Source: Escherichia phage KKE7M
Reading direction: 5' to 3' (one strand)
Length of the DNA stretch: 64,000 nucleotides
Sequence record: PQ356295.1
Shown here: positions 2,543 to 56,532 of the stretch, one piece after another
How the letters are laid out: every line of letters starts with the position of its first letter
Position numbering within the stretch: position 1 is the stretch's first letter
Position numbers and translations under genes: made by a program
Notes under the pieces: generated by a model
Databases searched by the model: none
What the model saw: the letters and a program-made list of their open reading frames with translations, nothing else
Told to the model about the DNA's origin: nothing

Positions 2543-3427
2543 ATGTTTGCTAAAAATTTCAAATCTTGCGTAACCCTGATTTCTGGTGATGGCCTGTCTA
2601 TTTCAGCACTGAACACAGTAACAGACAAACCGCTGGATTTTGTTGTGGCACAGGGGCAACAAGCACATACCATTGGTCTTGTTCGTTTTGAAGATGATGG
2701 TTCCTATGTAAAAGTGTTCTCTGGTTTAGAGGTTATTAAAGTAGGGCAATCTGTTAAGAAAGTTAACAAGAAGAAAGTTAAACGCATTCTTAATGAAAAA
2801 CTCCAGGAGATGGAACAAGAGTTTATTGCTGCAAATCCTACTAAAGAATTCTTCTTGGATAAAGAAAGTAAAAAAGCAATTGAGGCTGATATCGTGTTTT
2901 CTCTGCTTCCAGAAACAGAGGCAGATGATTTCTACAACTATGTTGTTGTAGACACTGAAAACAGTATTACCTATGTTCTTAATGGTTCTAAGAAAATTAG
3001 TGAAGATATTGCTGTATTTCTTCGTGAGGTGTTGGGTACTTTCCCAGTTCTGCCGTTTAGTGTACACGAAGAAGCCATTATTAAAGGTTTTGATACCATC
3101 TTAGAAGAACATGAGGCTGAACGACTGACCCTGGGTAATTATATTAAACTTGAAGATTCTGAAGGTGTGGTTGTATGGAGTAAAGAGTCCCTTTATGAAT
3201 CTCGTGCAGTAGAACTTATGGAAGATGGTAAGCACGTTGTTGCCATTGGCCTGGAATATGACGGTTTCGTTAACTTTATTGTCGATAAAGAATTTAAGTT
3301 GAGTGGTATTAAATTCCCTAAATACTTTAACGATGAAGAAGGATCTTTTGAAGCATCTGTCCTTCTGTGCTTTAATGAAATCCGTGGTATTATGCAAGAC
3401 CTTATCAAGTCAACTATTCAAAAATAA
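2543..3427 (+). CDS. RdgC-like recombination-associated protein (294 aa)
   Basis: ATG 2543 after GAGGAG; MFAKNFK N-terminus and LLP...VVDTEN...LREVLGTFPVLPF segment resemble RdgC. Confidence 0.5.
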   Translation: MFAKNFKSCVTLISGDGLSISALNTVTDKPLDFVVAQGQQAHTIGLVRFEDDGSYVKVFSGLEVIKVGQSVKKVNKKKVKRILNEKLQEMEQEFIAANPTKEFFLDKESKKAIEADIVFSLLPETEADDFYNYVVVDTENSITYVLNGSKKISEDIAVFLREVLGTFPVLPFSVHEEAIIKGFDTILEEHEAERLTLGNYIKLEDSEGVVVWSKESLYESRAVELMEDGKHVVAIGLEYDGFVNFIVDKEFKLSGIKFPKYFNDEEGSFEASVLLCFNEIRGIMQDLIKSTIQK

Positions 3428-3488: not shown

Positions 3489-3501
3489 AAGGAGACACAC
3501 C

Positions 3502-3714
3502 ATGAAAAAACTTCTTGTCGGTTTACTTTTAGTAATCAGTTCTTATTCTTATGCTGGTCAAATAACTTTAATTAATTCTGGAGAACAAGTTTCTGGAAGT
3601 ACAAAATACTGTTTTTACTCTAACGGTATGTACGACAAGGTTATAGAGGTTTCTGCAAGTCGTCAGTGTCCCTACACACGAACATTCTCAACAGAGAGTT
3701 CAGATGATGAATAG
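3502..3714 (+). CDS. small secreted protein with signal peptide (70 aa)
   Basis: N-terminus MKKLLVGLLLVISSYSYAGQ is signal-peptide-like; GGAG RBS. Confidence 0.55.
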   Translation: MKKLLVGLLLVISSYSYAGQITLINSGEQVSGSTKYCFYSNGMYDKVIEVSASRQCPYTRTFSTESSDDE

Positions 3715-42820: not shown

Positions 42821-43186
42821 CTATTCAATGCAAGCATTATTTGCATCTTCGATTCTGTCTTTCACCCACTGCAATCTCTTTGGGTTGGTATGGCAAGAAT
42901 GTGTCTTACCTTCATCTTCATAACACAGAAGATCATAATTAAAGGGTAGGAAGGAGGATAGCCCAGCACACGTGAATTGCAGTTTCATCTCTTCCAGTGT
43001 TTTACTACGAACCATCTTGAAATATTCTATATCTTCTTCCGTAGGTTTTTTCTTTGACATAGTGGTTGCCAGGTAATCCATAAGGCAATTACACAAACCA
43101 ACATTCTCACGATGCATTGAGGAATGATCTTCCATCCATGCTTTGTAAAATTCTAACAGCAGAGGACTGCTAAGAGGAACACACAT
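42821..43186 (-). CDS. hypothetical protein, paralog family member 3 (121 aa)
   Basis: Start refined (AAGGAG RBS); SPLLLEFYKAW, GLCNCL, LPFN, RLQWVKDRI. Confidence 0.5.
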   Translation of the reverse strand: MCVPLSSPLLLEFYKAWMEDHSSMHRENVGLCNCLMDYLATTMSKKKPTEEDIEYFKMVRSKTLEEMKLQFTCAGLSSFLPFNYDLLCYEDEGKTHSCHTNPKRLQWVKDRIEDANNACIE

Positions 43187-43546
43187 ATCAGACTCCTTTA
43201 TAAATTTACGTTTCATGCTACACATCATACAGCGTCTTTTCATCTATTACAAGAACAGCAACCTAGAAACATCATTAATAGAGGAATTAGTATAGGATTT
43301 CCCTATCAATTATTCTATATATACCTAATATTTTTAACACACCCCTTTGTACATAATATAGACAAATAAATATCTATGCCACAAAAATTTTCCGGTATAC
43401 CCGATTTATTTCGACACACCCCCTTTTCATAAGCGTAAAGCCAATAATATCAATAACTTGCCGCAAAATACTGCTCGCTTGCGAGAGGTGCTTAACGCGA
43501 TTTTTAGCGCCCCCGATTTCTGCCGACCGTCCCCCTCAAATATCAA

Positions 43547-43561
43547 TGAGAATTATTATCA
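43547..43561. promoter_or_regulatory. Fur-box-like 7-1-7 palindrome TGAGAATTATTATCA
   Basis: 14/15 match to TGATAAT-N-ATTATCA. Confidence 0.45.
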
Positions 43562-43741
43562 TTTGCATTATCATTCAATGACTTATAAGACTTTTGATTA
43601 TTTTCTGAGCAAGAAAGGCACTACTCACAACAAAACAGATAAATTATAAGTAAATCAATGACTTGGCAAGTCTAAACATCTATATACACCTTGCCAAATG
43701 AAATGATCCTGCGTGAAATAGTGCTACCCGTGGAAGATAGC

Positions 43742-43756
43742 TGATAATGATTATCA
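43742..43756. promoter_or_regulatory. Fur-box-like palindrome TGATAATGATTATCA (perfect 7-1-7 match), with TATACT -10-like hexamer 14 bp downstream
   Basis: Exact match to Fur 7-1-7 consensus TGATAAT-N-ATTATCA. Confidence 0.55.
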
Positions 43757-44279
43757 TTTGCATATTTTCTATACTATAAAACTACCTAAAAATCAAGATA
43801 ATTCTGATTTATTGCGCTTTTAAGAGAATAGGCTCAACAAATAGGCTATAACTATGCTCAACAAATGATAGGTTATATGGGGCAATAGTATGAAAAACCA
43901 TCTATTCAGATATAAATAATTTTGCGCAATAATGGTGATATTTTTCTTGACAAGAAAGATTTCTTTGTGTTCACATAGCGTCCCCTGGAAGGTGGCGCAT
44001 TATGATCATCAATGTCATTGTTCACGATGTTTATTATTGAATAGCTTATTATATGTAGCTTATATTATAGCCAATGTTCCAAACATTAGCTAATAATAAC
44101 GCACCGCAACAATGTAAGGGATACAATATACCATGTATATTGTTGCGCTTGCAATTGTTGCAAGCTACATAAGCACAAATAATAACTATCGGTGATGGTT
44201 ATTATGTGGGGTGTGTAGTTGCGTTATTATTAGCCGCCTATGTGTCCGGCATAGGCTGCTAATGATACGCTTGCTAATT

Positions 44280-44640
44280 ATATTTCTTGTTATAATTATT
44301 GTATGAAATGATTACGGTATGAAATGATTATTTAGGTAATAGATAGTAAGGTAAAGATTAGATCATAAATAGATAGGATATTAATTATTTAGTAATGTTA
44401 CTAACAATTTAATAGTTACTTTGTGCAACAATTCGATAGATTATAGTTATAGTTTTAAAGGTTAGATAGATTATATTTAGCTTGGTAATGATTTATATTA
44501 GTTATTGTTGTTTAATATAAGGTTATCAATGAGATAGTAACAGTAAGTTATAAATAAAGGTGAAATAATTAGCTTTAATTTAGTTAGATAACTTATTATT
44601 TTATAGGTTAGATGGTCATAAGTTAAGAATGATTATCATT
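44280..44640. repeat. AT-rich iteron-like repeat block (TAGATAG repeats, 14-bp direct repeat GTATGAAATGATTA x2)
   Basis: Read directly; ORF-free. Confidence 0.5.
44624..44638. promoter_or_regulatory. Fur-box-like palindrome TAAGAATGATTATCA
   Basis: 13/15 match to 7-1-7 consensus. Confidence 0.4.
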
Positions 44641-44681
44641 ATTGCATTATGCAGTTTATTGCATAAATAATCAGCTATAAA

Positions 44682-44696
44682 TGAGAATGATTATTA
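44682..44696. promoter_or_regulatory. Fur-box-like palindrome TGAGAATGATTATTA
   Basis: 13/15 match to 7-1-7 consensus. Confidence 0.4.
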
Positions 44697-44903
44697 TTTA
44701 AGAGGAAAGACAAGAAAAAGGCTGTTTTTGCCAGATAGTTACATGGAGAAATTAAAAATAAGCGGTCTAAAACACGTTGTAAGCGCCTTATGATCTTCAT
44801 GGTATGGTTGTTCATCTGCTCCTTGATTAGCTCGATACCGCGATCTATTCACTTTTTTCGGTGAACGTTTTTGATAGGTAAAAGCTATCATCTTTATTTA
44901 GGT

Positions 44904-44930
44904 AAAAAGAAAGGGCGCTTTGTGCGCCCT
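44904..44930 (-). terminator. terminator hairpin GGGCGC-TTTGT-GCGCCC with flanking A/T tracts
   Basis: Downstream of minus gene ending 44946; same hairpin family at 46082 and 50473. Confidence 0.55.
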
Positions 44931-44945
44931 GGTGTGAAATGTTAT

Positions 44946-45329
44946 TTACTGATAAGCTGGATCGTTTGTTATATCAATCCAATGAGCTAAATTAATTTTA
45001 TTTTTTGCTTTCATTTTCTCGATCAAACGTTCGGCTAATGTCTCGGAACGAATATAAACATGCTCGCTAAAATCTTGCCCCGTTTCCTCGTCGATCATCT
45101 CGCGATATTCAATTTTCCCGATAAACGCATGATTCAGCGCATAAGTTTTACCCGTGTACCAGTTGTGCAAATGAATCTCACATTTATAATCATCGCTATA
45201 ACCTTCGGTTGTTCTAACTTCAACCAGATCGCCTTTAAACACTGATAAGCACCACATAGGATCACGATCTACAGCGCCGTTAAAGTCTTTACCGTTTACA
45301 GTAGCCGCCAGGTTGATGATATTGCTCAT
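44946..45329 (-). CDS. hypothetical protein (127 aa)
   Basis: Start refined to MSNIINL with GAGGAA RBS. Confidence 0.5.
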   Translation of the reverse strand: MSNIINLAATVNGKDFNGAVDRDPMWCLSVFKGDLVEVRTTEGYSDDYKCEIHLHNWYTGKTYALNHAFIGKIEYREMIDEETGQDFSEHVYIRSETLAERLIEKMKAKNKINLAHWIDITNDPAYQ

Positions 45330-54727: not shown

Positions 54728-55000
54728 TTAAAACAAAAATGCTATATCTTGCGCTTTTAGTGTAGTGTCGATCATTTTCGGGCTTTTATAATCGACAAAG
54801 CGCGCGGTTTTTTCAATAACGAAGCCGAGGTAATCTTGTTTATTGAAATCACATTCTTTTTTAAATGTTTCCCGTGCCACTGTGATCGCTGCGTCCAGGG
54901 ATAAACGTCCATCAATATTGATGTTAGCGAAAGATCCGCCACCGCGCATAGGTTTACCAGTGATACCCTTTACGATCATTGATGCGCTATATGATGCCAT
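54728..55000 (-). CDS. hypothetical protein (90 aa)
   Basis: ORF. Confidence 0.45.
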   Translation of the reverse strand: MASYSASMIVKGITGKPMRGGGSFANINIDGRLSLDAAITVARETFKKECDFNKQDYLGFVIEKTARFVDYKSPKMIDTTLKAQDIAFLF

Positions 55001-55024
55001 GATTATTTCTCTCTTCTGTTATGA

Positions 55025-55080
55025 GCGGCACTATTGCCGCCCTATGTGATACATCTTATCAGATTAAAAAACGTTGTCAA
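55025..55080 (-). promoter_or_regulatory. promoter plus stem-loop cassette
   Basis: TTGACA-N16-TAAGAT then GCGGCAATAGTGCCGC. Confidence 0.5.
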
Positions 55081-55089
55081 GAATATTTT

Positions 55090-55185
55090 TTAGAAAATAA
55101 CAACCGCTACTACAATCCAAAATGGAACGGCTAGAATGATAGCGTTAATCGTTCCAACCGTCAAGCTGTTTTCTTTCTTGATCAT
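55090..55185 (-). CDS. small membrane peptide (31 aa)
   Basis: Hydrophobic; strong promoter TTGACG-N17-TATTAT upstream; short. Confidence 0.3.
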   Translation of the reverse strand: MIKKENSLTVGTINAIILAVPFWIVVAVVIF

Positions 55186-55451
55186 CGTTATCAACCTTTT
55201 ATAAGTAATGTTATTGTGACGGTGGATTGTGGAGATCCTCACCTTTGCCCGTCCTGCATTGCACCCGCCTTTTATTTATTGTCGTTGTGCCTTGCCCCCC
55301 TCGACAAGATGAATAATATGTTATTACCCTGGTAACGTCAACCATTTTTTTAATCTTTTTTCATTTCTTTTTTGCTTGCTATCTATAAAGGAAACGGCTA
55401 TTATCTTTCTACCGCGCCAACCAGGGCGCACATCAAAGAAAGGGCGATACC

Positions 55452-55718
55452 ATGACAAATACTCCTTTACATCTCATGCACTCATTGGGCTGGCAAGGCG
55501 GCACGGTGCACCAGGTAGCAAGCGCAACGGGCTTAAAGGTTGAAACCGTTCTCAACCTGGGCGATCATAAGGTGGAAGAGATAGATCATTTTGATACGTT
55601 CGCAAATGGTTATCTATGGGCTTGCAGTGGCGGCGGGGAAAGCAAGATCCCACCAGGGGCGCGGGGCGACATGTATTTTTGGTTAGGTGTCCTATCCTGG
55701 CAAGAAAACAAAAAATAA
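55452..55718 (+). CDS. hypothetical protein (88 aa)
   Basis: ORF; promoter-like TTGCTA-N17-TATTAT upstream. Confidence 0.45.
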   Translation: MTNTPLHLMHSLGWQGGTVHQVASATGLKVETVLNLGDHKVEEIDHFDTFANGYLWACSGGGESKIPPGARGDMYFWLGVLSWQENKK

Positions 55719-55721
55719 TCT

Positions 55722-55750
55722 TGACAAGCCCAGGGATCGGGCTTATACTG
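55722..55750 (+). promoter_or_regulatory. sigma70-like promoter TTGACA-N17-TATACT
   Basis: Points into ORF-free Fur-box/repeat region. Confidence 0.4.
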
Positions 55751-55981
55751 TTTTACATACAGAAGAGGAAGCGCCACCCCCACGGCGTAAAGGCGGGGCT
55801 AACATACCAGGGGGGCACTGGTTGGAAGGTTGATCGCCGGTAGCTCGTCTAAAATAAATTTGTAAAGAAATGTAAAGATAAAAATAATCGCTTGCTTTTG
55901 TTGTTGGTTATGCTATTCTTATTGTATGGCGAGGGGACACGGGAGCGCGAGACAAACACCACCCCTGCGCGTTATTCTCTA

Positions 55982-56000
55982 AATGAGAAAAATTCTCATT
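55982..56000. promoter_or_regulatory. palindrome AATGAGAA-AAA-TTCTCATT
   Basis: Perfect inverted repeat related to adjacent Fur-box-like sites. Confidence 0.4.
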
Positions 56001-56024
56001 TGCTAACGATTCTCATTCTCTTAC

Positions 56025-56039
56025 TGAGAATGATTATCA
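56025..56039. promoter_or_regulatory. Fur-box-like palindrome TGAGAATGATTATCA
   Basis: 14/15 match to 7-1-7 consensus. Confidence 0.5.
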
Positions 56040-56053
56040 CTTACATAATTAAA

Positions 56054-56068
56054 TGATAATGATTCTCA
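56054..56068. promoter_or_regulatory. Fur-box-like palindrome TGATAATGATTCTCA
   Basis: 14/15 match. Confidence 0.5.
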
Positions 56069-56076
56069 TTTACAAA

Positions 56077-56091
56077 TGAGAATGATTATCA
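56077..56091. promoter_or_regulatory. Fur-box-like palindrome TGAGAATGATTATCA
   Basis: 14/15 match. Confidence 0.5.
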
Positions 56092-56116
56092 TACGCACAC
56101 CTATAAAAACACGAAA

Positions 56117-56320
56117 TTGAACTTTTCATTTTTGATTTTTCTACGGAAAAAGGCAAAAAAACTTTAAATAAACTGGGGAATTTTTAAAAAATTGAAGTTT
56201 TCATTTTCAAAATCTGGATAGAAATACATACAAAAACTTTAAATAATTTTGACCAAACTTGAACTTTTCATTTTCTAAATTTGTACCCAAAAATCTGTAA
56301 AAACTTTAAATAATTTTGTA
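56117..56320. repeat. three tandem ~67-77 bp repeat units, each with boxes TTGAA(C/G)TTTTCATTTT and AAAAACTTTAAATAA
   Basis: Box 1 at 56117, 56192, 56259; box 2 at 56154, 56231, 56300. Confidence 0.6.
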
Positions 56321-56532
56321 CTTTTTATAAAAATGATTTTACTGTTCTGTTATAAGTAGTAGTTAAGAGATAGTATGTCTTTTAAAGATCAGATACCATA
56401 GTCCAACAAACAAATTAAATACTTTATTAACAGGGTATAGAATACTACTTACTCTGGATATATTATTCAGAGGGTGAATTTCCGTACATGAAACCCACAC
56501 CCCTTTTTATAAAAATAAAAATTTTCAAAATA

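Follow-up and report, generated by a model that had tools for sequence, protein, structure and literature searches.

We analysed a 64,000-nucleotide (nt) stretch of the genome of Escherichia phage KKE7M (record PQ356295.1), referred to as the window, and within it a non-coding region at 43187-44945, referred to as the gap. By its sequence the phage is a Justusliebigvirus, i.e. a phi92-like member of the subfamily Stephanstirmvirinae. Our data suggest the gap very probably being the point at which the two physical ends, right and left, of a phi92-like chromosome are joined, the two copies of the terminal repeat being merged into one there. A packaging site was among the roles the first-pass annotation of the window had considered for this region, and this option proved right because the records of related phages start or end at conserved motifs bounding a phi92-type repeat; the gap thus holds both the direct terminal repeat of the family and the two conserved terminus positions. 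Identity of the repeat and cut sites are already known for the phage family and this explanation is ordinary for it. The interest lies in further conserved elements of the gap, i.e. a 175-nt structured element with a palindrome, a 360-nt AT-rich tract poor in C and a set of Fur-box-like palindromes, which appear to be undescribed and give three concrete cis elements open to testing; from their features we infer functions in the recognition of DNA for packaging, the priming of replication, injection or control by iron. Therapy cocktails include phi92-like phages, which also serve as models (BASEL collection), and we know of no account of their origin, their pac signals or their early regulation.

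The features defining the chromosome ends are the following, none of them assigned to a strand:

43493-43834: direct terminal repeat (DTR) of 342 base pairs (bp), one copy in the window, aligning end to end with phi92 DTR-L and DTR-R
43490-43499: right-terminus motif GCT^TAACGCG, cut between 43492 and 43493, at which the phi92 and Schickermooser records end and the WPEC1 record starts
43831-43838: left-terminus motif GGCT^CAAC, cut between 43834 and 43835, at which the phi92 and Schickermooser records start and the PD06 record is opened
43835-44043: variable spacer just outside the repeat, a hot spot of indels and substitutions containing extra copies of the left-terminus motif

The RefSeq record of phi92 (NC_023693) is split inside the gap region and carries two annotated repeats of 343 bp, PHI92_DTR-L (1-343) and DTR-R (148270-148612). 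Window positions 43493-43834 align to both over their full length without large gaps, a C-run in the repeat of the window being one C shorter than in phi92 (342 compared to 343 bp). The repeat of the window is homologous over its full length to the phi92 repeat, and to those of BME3 and Schickermooser, and agrees with them in its boundaries, boundary motifs and flanking genes. For BME3 a DTR of 342 bp was determined by PhageTerm (PMC12210895), for Schickermooser a terminal repeat of 328 bp was reported (PMC6563267), and a paper from 2025 states all Stephanstirmvirinae end in direct terminal repeats (PMC12695924). In the window the repeat occurs only once and in the interior of the sequence, the record therefore being a collapsed or permuted representation of the terminal copies. 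The C-run (43510-43514 and homologous positions) is a homopolymer of five to seven residues among close relatives, resulting in repeat lengths of 342-344 bp and in a frameshift of the only open reading frame (ORF) of at least 60 codons in the gap.

On the bottom strand, the virion DNA terminates at its right end with ...CGCGTTA-3', right before AGCACC, and begins at its left end with 5'-AGCCTA..., right after ...TTTGTTG; both cuts therefore fall into GTTR^AGC (bottom strand), corresponding to GCT^YAAC on the top strand. The phi92 record starts and ends exactly at the two motifs and the record ends of Schickermooser, a Phapecoctavirus, map onto the homologous bases. PD06 was opened exactly at GCT^CAAC, and the WPEC1 record begins one base off the right-terminus motif. 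Of the 16 relatives with a fetched locus covering the latter, 15 have it, Wec190 being the exception, and nearly every relative whose fetched locus spans both motifs, metagenomic ones included, has both. They are separated by 320-343 bp in most relatives and by 411 bp in IMG15. The homology of 43493-43834 to the phi92 repeat, the occurrence of the boundary motifs throughout the subfamily and the record ends in two genera constitute the observed part of the end-junction model. The two motifs provide a sequence-only means to orient and open any Stephanstirmvirinae assembly. A second copy of the left-motif sequence, GCTCAACAAAT, is found at 43856-43866 in the window, and several phages have extra copies, (T/G)GCTCAACA, 24-136 bp outside the repeat, with three in FKP3. 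These fall into the most indel-prone part of the gap and could serve as alternative cut sites or as decoys, or have been left behind by a drift of the repeat boundary.

The gap lies between two leftward gene blocks, both encoded on the - strand as the first-pass annotation had described. The first gene of the left block has its true start at 43186 (ATG, - strand), preceded by an AAGGAG ribosome binding site (RBS), so that the non-coding stretch runs from 43187 to 44945 and is slightly longer than first delimited. It is AT-rich, as had been noted, with a GC content of 31.7% compared to 37.2% in the whole window. Its right neighbour (44946-45329, - strand) encodes a T4 gp30.8-like protein corresponding to phi92 gp248, the final gene of the phi92 record, and this block is closed by the following feature:

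44912-44930, - strand: intrinsic terminator directly after the gp30.8-like gene

The left neighbours match phi92 gp002-gp006 and phAPEC8 genes as named in the PATM annotation, and phi92 gp001 diverges from the first left-block gene of the window. The flanks of the gap, the gp248/gp30.8-like gene and the early small genes, are shared with phi92. Comparison with more than 45 Justusliebigvirus genomes reveals 93-97% identity over the gap; Phapecoctavirus, the sister genus, and a few further relatives align to it in patches of approximately 70-80% identity. It is present and conserved in every Stephanstirmvirinae genome examined, at least to the extent of its flanking genes, and conserved islands survive across genera. 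On these comparative grounds we show the gap to be non-coding DNA under purifying selection.

Between the repeat and the right-hand gene block, the most elaborate part of the gap is a multi-hairpin element, which we call element S, together with its associated repeats and palindrome:

44089-44263, + strand: conserved multi-hairpin element S, 175 nt, supported by fold energy, consensus fold, covariation and a covariance model
44089-44102 with 44221-44234: outer helix of element S, covarying
44182-44190 with 44194-44202: 9-bp hairpin of element S, covarying
44236-44243 with 44249-44256: 8-bp hairpin of element S, covarying
44147-44165, no strand: palindrome GCTTGCAA-N3-TTGCAAGC, here with the spacer TTG
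44044-44285, no strand: cluster of GCTWAT(D)AT repeats flanking element S and forming its base

Element S folds with -82.3 kcal/mol on the + strand (z -8.1 against shuffles) and -66.5 kcal/mol on the - strand (z -6.4). From 17 distinct copies (Justusliebigvirus, Phapecoctavirus, Tr1, FKP3, WPEC1 and IMG/VR contigs) RNAalifold derived a consensus of -63.2 kcal/mol for the top strand, with 51 pairs of which none is broken, and of -45.5 kcal/mol for the bottom strand. All 867 of 867 cells of the named structure are paired. The alignment contains 13 compensatory pairs, compared to 6.9 +/- 1.0 in shuffles of which 0 of 500 reach this number, and slid controls yield 0-5. A metagenome scan added five further variants, bringing the 9-bp hairpin to about ten sequence versions. 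The three solid helices show G-T pairs at five positions and A-C at none, therefore favouring the top strand as the one that folds, be it RNA or single-stranded DNA (ssDNA); the evidence leans towards the top strand without being unanimous. In the central part the palindrome either forms its own hairpin beside a 6-bp helix or each of its arms pairs elsewhere, the two being mutually exclusive, and one 5' base covaries with both alternative partners. The covariance model detects one copy of element S in the window and none in the locus of Avunavirus Av-05 or in the T5-like locus, so a second copy or a homologue in either is dismissed. In Av-05 (3186-3262 of the locus) we observed an analogous long-range 15-bp inverted repeat, GCGACACAATAACGC ... 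GCGTTATTGTGTCGC, around a TGTAAGG motif and a G-run, resembling the outer helix and the loop motifs of element S and receiving no score from the covariance model.

The palindrome GCTTGCAA-TTG-TTGCAAGC lies exactly where it was first annotated. Its arms are identical in 20 distinct relatives save for one base in inny, variation otherwise being confined to the 3-nt spacer, and it is likely a protein-binding site of the double-stranded DNA (dsDNA) type. Six metagenome contigs carry the exact palindrome, GCTTGCAA-N3-TTGCAAGCTAC, with no covariance-model match to element S; these may be unrelated chance matches or reflect use in another context. The second palindrome reported by the first-pass annotation has the arms GCCTATG and CATAGGC as described, and its position and spacer need correction to 44236-44256 with N7, instead of a start at 44237 with N6. 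GCTWAT(D)AT is found in eight copies in the window, six of which lie in the gap (0.21 expected at uniform density) and five of these six in 44044-44285; the motif also flanks element S in other genera.

Adjoining element S is a tract of strongly biased composition:

44266-44623, no strand: AT-rich tract with a C-poor top strand (approximately 5% C, 17% G, 78% A+T), holding a 16-nt tandem repeat and words of the TAGATAG type

The GC content over 44266-44660 is 21.8% (78% A+T), in line with the AT-richness first noted. In the relatives the tract spans 300-430 nt and is unalignable between genera, yet its AT-richness and the C-poor top strand (5-12% C) are kept in both. The repeats assigned to it by the first-pass annotation fare differently. 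What had been described as a 14-bp direct repeat exists and is in fact a 16-nt tandem repeat of 2.4 copies (44295-44332), the copy number differing among relatives. The TAGATAG block is not sustained: three copies compared to 0.43 expected at uniform density across the window are a weak enrichment, and Phapecoctavirus, the sister genus, has either lost the block or does not align there, so that TAGATAG words as iterons are discarded for weak enrichment and lack of conservation.

Promoter-like sites are found on both sides of the repeat and within it:

43187-43492, - strand: leader/promoter region upstream of the first left-block gene
43296-43345, - strand: block conserved across genera, holding a sigma-70-like site aimed at the first left gene (-35 at 43337-43332, -10 at 43314-43309)
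43669-43697, - strand: sigma-70-like site inside the repeat directed toward the left genes, TTGGCA-N17-TAGACT (TTGACA in phi92)
44659-44688, + strand: promoter-like site TTGCAT-N18-GAGAAT, putative in function, with its -10 inside the Fur-like box F4 listed below

Upstream of the conserved block 43296-43345 there are three G-rich 25-nt direct repeats (GGGGGTGTGTCGAAAT-like on the bottom strand), the third lying just inside the terminal repeat (43512-43536). The site inside the terminal repeat sits within an 8-bp inverted repeat, TTGGCAAG...CTTGCCAA. The TTGCAT-N18 layout recurs in Phapecoctavirus, with GATAAT, and in Avunavirus Av-05. A search for transcriptome literature on Stephanstirmvirinae returned nothing usable.

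These findings are in agreement with a model according to which terminase would cut the replicative concatemer at two sites 342 bp apart, as in T7-type packaging with exact ends. The repeat being duplicated at cutting, every virion DNA would carry it at both ends; terminase cleavage and the T7-like duplication are taken here from general knowledge of phages with short repeats. After injection, promoters of the host type in and just left of the repeat would fire leftward into the first block of small early genes. In the final 1.1 kb of the packaged DNA (43835-44945), cis-acting signals would take the place of genes, i.e. the GCTAAT cluster with element S and the palindrome, the AT-rich tract of approximately 360 nt, two Fur-like boxes on the promoter-like site and a conserved block B1, described below. 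Together these elements would mark the concatemer for recognition by terminase and/or prime replication of the hairpin or R-loop type, and the Fur-like palindromes would act as operators for the host Fur or for a protein of similar specificity. We prefer recognition or processing of the concatemer and/or replication priming as the probable task of this right-hand 1.1 kb because element S precedes the repeat by a few hundred bp at the right end, in the manner of the T7 hairpin and pac signals, because the strand-specific hairpins carry an invariant palindrome of the protein-binding type, and because the adjacent tract is prone to unwinding and strand-skewed.

The closest parallel is the concatemer junction of T7 and T3, reportedly described by Chung, Nardone and Hinkle in 1990 and by Fujisawa and Morita in 1997. 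This junction has a short exact repeat cut at both boundaries, early promoters for the host RNA polymerase near the left end, and a hairpin-forming inverted repeat with pac signals on the right side. The gap resembles it in a repeat of a few hundred bp with defined ends, in promoter-like sites in or near the repeat pointing toward early genes, and in a conserved element with strong hairpin potential, situated on the side of the right end at a distance of a few hundred bp from the repeat. In contrast to T7 and T3, the phage is a 146-kb myovirus for which no phage RNA polymerase is known, the sequences share no similarity, and both the cleavage chemistry and the role of the hairpins are putative.

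Several points weigh against the end-junction model and the tasks assigned to its parts. The repeat is single and internal in the window, differing in this respect from phi92, and the physical ends of this isolate are taken from its relatives. Convention may have led depositors to open some of the records at the phi92 coordinate, in which case these would not be fully independent of each other. The promoter-like site inside the repeat is not clearly conserved in Phapecoctavirus, and a promoter scan found 18 sites compared to 14 expected from shuffles, which is not above chance, all promoter assignments being putative for this reason. In element S, the phAPEC8 lineage has a C-A mismatch in the first of the two central alternatives, which would speak for the opposite strand; the assignment to the top strand is tentative, and the element may be RNA or ssDNA. 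Binding of terminase, initiation of replication, transcription and binding of Fur at the gap are all predicted from sequence.

A replication origin, another role considered in the first-pass annotation, is a tentative and somewhat unlikely assignment, which is compatible with the terminal repeat and would account for the right-hand 0.9 kb. According to this, element S, the palindrome and the GCTAAT repeats would form an initiator or primosome-loading site and the AT-rich tract a zone of unwinding or R-loop formation. It is favoured by the strong structure and covariation of element S, by the adjoining C-poor tract being conserved in composition and not in sequence, with an unwinding-type AT-rich region present at 44266-44660 and its composition kept in the sister genus, by the approximately 30-fold enrichment of GCTWAT repeats in the gap and by plausible + strand promoters just upstream of element S. 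Origins primed by transcription or by hairpins are known from T4 oriF/oriG, ColE1 RNA II and the ssi signals. The gap shares with these a structured element followed by an AT-rich stretch, with G exceeding C on the non-template strand; it has no homology to them, and promoter and initiation point are putative here. The features expected for an R-loop origin are mixed, the strand skew being evident (5% C compared to 17% G) and the promoter candidates being neither above chance nor homologous between genera.

An origin of the iteron type fails because the repeats are neither conserved nor regularly spaced: we found no set of at least three regularly spaced conserved direct repeats of 17-22 bp, only short irregular words and the tandem repeat of 2.4 copies. 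The scan for DnaA boxes and GC skew suggested by the first-pass annotation did not point to an origin either. No DnaA box TTATCCACA is present in the gap at up to one mismatch, leading us to reject an origin built on DnaA boxes, and the GC skew in the window follows the direction of transcription, apart from a local blip caused by the C-poor top strand of the tract, so that mapping an origin by skew was abandoned. In rV5, GC skew likewise follows gene orientation (PMC3606486). Inspection of the ten flanking proteins revealed small proteins of unknown function, no replication-related family and no recognisable initiator or replication gene near the gap. What stands of the origin proposal is thus a structured element and an AT-rich tract compatible with transcription- or hairpin-primed initiation; the readings based on iterons and DnaA boxes do not.

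The covariation in element S could also reflect a non-coding RNA (ncRNA) gene, which we regard as possible and rather improbable. In this case, a top-strand transcript of the 175 nt, antisense to every neighbouring gene, would act as a structured RNA, either regulatory or as a pre-primer. Both singly and as an alignment, the top strand gives the better fold than the bottom strand; wherever only one side of a pair has changed in the three solid helices, the result is G-U and never A-C, and the 5' base covarying with both of its partners hints at a switch. These observations are countered by the absence of an Rfam match even at E values up to 10, of an intrinsic terminator after element S and of homology between genera among the upstream promoter candidates. 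Moreover, the arms of the palindrome, virtually invariant with one base changed in one phage, resemble a dsDNA protein site, the phAPEC8 lineage has the C-A mismatch in one alternative helix, and hairpins of ssDNA tolerate G-T pairs as well.

The covariance-model and transfer RNA (tRNA) search likewise suggested by the first-pass annotation came back empty. Rfam 15 has no hit at gathering score in the window and only chance-level matches in the gap at E values up to 10, and ARAGORN detects 0 tRNAs and no transfer-messenger RNA (tmRNA); a tRNA, tmRNA or known ncRNA in the gap is dropped on this basis. The proposed cluster of ncRNA genes thus reduces to one covarying structured element, RNA or ssDNA.

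Palindromes resembling the binding site of host Fur form a further group of features in the gap:

43547-43561, no strand: Fur-like box F1 (TGAGAATTATTATCA), a 7-1-7 palindrome inside the repeat
43742-43756, no strand: Fur-like box F2 (TGATAATGATTATCA), inside the repeat, the 19-mer at 43743-43761 matching the Fur consensus at 17/19 positions
44624-44638, no strand: Fur-like box F3 (TAAGAATGATTATCA)
44682-44696, no strand: Fur-like box F4 (TGAGAATGATTATTA)

As the Escherichia coli Fur box we take the consensus GATAATGATAATCATTATC with the 7-1-7 core TGATAATNATTATCA, which is said to derive from work by de Lorenzo (1987), Escolar (1999) and Baichoo and Helmann (2002). The Fur-like sites noted in the first-pass annotation are far above chance: the consensus has four hits at up to three mismatches in the window compared to 0.06 expected, the sites in the gap match the 19-bp consensus at 17/19, 16/19, 15/19 and 14/19 positions, and four or more sites at 14/19 or better are reached in 0.05% of Markov simulations of the region. 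The core TGAKAAT-N-ATTMTCA is found eight times in the 64 kb at up to one mismatch, four times in the gap (two of them inside the repeat) and four times at 55984-56091, all eight copies thus lying in two non-coding regions and none elsewhere. F1 and F2 are conserved in Phapecoctavirus, and the gap of Av-05 has two Fur-like boxes, including one at the position of F4.

That these four palindromes and the four at 55984-56091 would be operators for the iron-dependent regulator Fur of the host is an unlikely explanation on the sequence evidence, by which iron-replete cells would repress early transcription starting at the genome end, or Fur would be titrated by the replicating phage DNA. For this explanation speak the quality of the consensus matches (14-17/19; four hits compared to 0.06 expected), the confinement of the eight core copies to two non-coding regions, the positions being kept in Phapecoctavirus with two boxes in Avunavirus, and the overlap of F4 with the -10 of the conserved TTGCAT-N18-GAKAAT site. 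Like E. coli Fur boxes, the phage sites are 15-nt inverted repeats of equal spacing clustered in non-coding DNA only. They differ from these in their consensus, TGAGAAT-N-ATTCTCA/ATTATCA, with G where Fur has T, and in that one site only lies on a promoter-like -10. The preference for GAGAAT over GATAAT half-sites means the motif could belong to a dimeric protein encoded by the phage. A single box overlaps a credible promoter, F1-F3 having no convincing one, and in two genera the boxes inside the repeat keep distances of 62-67 bp and 84-86 bp to the cut sites, which would fit an architectural role in packaging as well. None of the papers searched reports Fur boxes in lytic phages; if Fur binds the palindromes, infection would be tied to the availability of iron in the gut.

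Two related candidates did not hold. A Fur-regulated small RNA running from TTGCAT-N18-GAGAAT through block B1 is rejected, 44692-44886 having no conserved fold on either strand (-6.9 and -2.9 kcal/mol), and a match to PrrF scored 18 bits compared to a gathering score of 90 and is attributed to chance.

The second locus at 56 kb is part of an ORF-poor region (55000-56530), in which Rfam and ARAGORN detect nothing. Here, four or five Fur-box-like palindromes form a tight cluster (55984-56091). Upstream of it is a near-consensus sigma-70 site, TTGACA-N17-TATACT (55721-55749, + strand), followed by a GC-rich stretch, and downstream the sequence becomes AT-rich and contains two copies of the direct repeat GAACTTTTCATTTT and three of AACTTTAAATAA (56119-56313). 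It is conceivable, and in our view improbable, that the genome end of phi92- and rV5-like myoviruses is a host-sensing module, in which Fur-type operators, located in the terminal repeat and beside a strand-specific, switch-like element S, would gate early transcription and/or replication priming by iron, the same motif also governing the locus at 56 kb; if so, a strictly lytic phage would for the first time be found to belong to the Fur regulon.

The part of the gap most conserved in primary sequence lies at its right-hand side:

44750-44900, no strand: block B1, with the core TGATTAGCTCGATACCGCGATCTATTCA; conservation in the gap is highest here

B1 has two variable sites in 150 nt within the genus, and its primary sequence is conserved across Stephanstirmvirinae and Avunavirus and recognisable in Vequintavirinae. 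No conserved fold was found in B1 on either strand. A motif of approximately 40-90 nt (ATCGATTTTAAGCGGCCTAAA-like) is common to B1 (44750-44800), to Av-05 (3501-3597 of the locus) and to the T5-like phage OSYSP, where it forms an inverted pair in an untranslated region rich in DnaA boxes (950-1600 of the locus). This region is probably Repeat Region 3 of the T5 iss. The T5 iss was described as a 1.2-kb untranslated block at the inner end of the terminal repeat, with repeats, palindromes and eight DnaA boxes (bioRxiv 10.1101/866236).

Modelled on T5 Repeat Region 3, the gap could be an injection-control region, i.e. an untranslated block docking a host DNA-binding protein and pausing or ordering the entry of DNA, which we consider quite improbable. 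The overall anatomy is as described for T5 (bioRxiv 10.1101/866236): both are untranslated blocks of 1.2-1.7 kb straddling the boundary of a terminal repeat, crowded with direct and inverted repeats and palindromes, more conserved than the neighbouring ORFs, furnished with boxes for a host DNA-binding protein and sharing a short motif. A B1 profile built from Stephanstirmvirinae only hits the DnaA-box-rich OSYSP region with an nhmmer E value of 2e-5 in a 10-kb search, and the Av-05 gap matches it by blastn with 75% identity over approximately 90 nt. This sequence link is short and weak, however, and the differences are substantial. The gap has no DnaA boxes, the boxes being Fur-like here, the repeat is 342 bp (0.34 kb) instead of 10 kb and contains no pre-early genes, the elaborate part is mostly at the right end of the virion DNA, and two-step injection is not known for the family.

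Two more distant relatives have comparable regions. On the rV5 map a grey box is marked "non-coding" (Kropinski et al. 2013, PMC3606486), like the gap a large ORF-free block inside a long leftward early transcription unit of a related myovirus. In contrast to the gap, it is part of a genome described as circularly permuted and no function was proposed for it (PMC3606486). Avunavirus Av-05 has a gap of 1.9 kb with the same right-hand block, the terminator and the two Fur-like boxes, differing in that element S is not detected by the covariance model.

Genuine genes for very small proteins, such as the seven to nine hypothetical proteins of 31-46 amino acids (aa) placed in the gap in VivaForever and 92CQ, are a very improbable explanation given that a frameshift or a stop interrupts 11 of the 12 ORFs of at least 30 aa in one or more relatives of at least 93% identity. 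The statement of the first-pass annotation that no ORF of at least 60 aa exists is strictly not correct, a 63-aa ORF with a TTG start being present at 43458-43649 (+ strand); its essence holds in that this frame is shifted in 5/5 close relatives, partly via the C-run of five to seven residues varying in length. The one remaining candidate is the following:

44675-44815, - strand: 46-aa ORF with an AAGGAG RBS, annotated in some records, coding doubtful

This ORF has a good RBS and is intact in six Justusliebigvirus sequences, and automatic or PHANOTATE-style annotations (VivaForever, 92CQ and similar records) place seven to nine tiny coding sequences (CDS) in the gap. Against coding, the frame has lost its start codon or has in-frame stops in Phapecoctavirus and Av-05, though the DNA is conserved there, most of its few nucleotide changes alter the amino acid, and conservation reaches beyond the ORF. 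Careful annotations, i.e. those of phi92, inny, PATM, phAPEC8, ZCKP1, TSP7, ukendt and the phiWec phages, leave the gap without CDS. Small-protein genes were thus rejected as an explanation, with 11 of 12 ORFs broken in relatives and the 46-aa ORF not conserved beyond the genus, and the check for genuine small CDSs proposed alongside the first description of the region found it not filled by them. For annotation this implies labelling the gap as a terminal-repeat junction (repeat 43493-43834, motifs GCT^YAAC) and not as tiny hypothetical CDS.

ARAGORN found no tRNA gene in the entire 64-kb window. As phages of the family carry 11-16 tRNAs, their cluster must be located elsewhere in the genome. 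Four records labelled "Campylobacter phage" with the host Campylobacter jejuni (MG065639, MG065656, MG065645 and MG065689) are 94% identical to the gap region, yet have genome sizes of Justusliebigvirus; these are probably mislabelled or contaminant E. coli phages.

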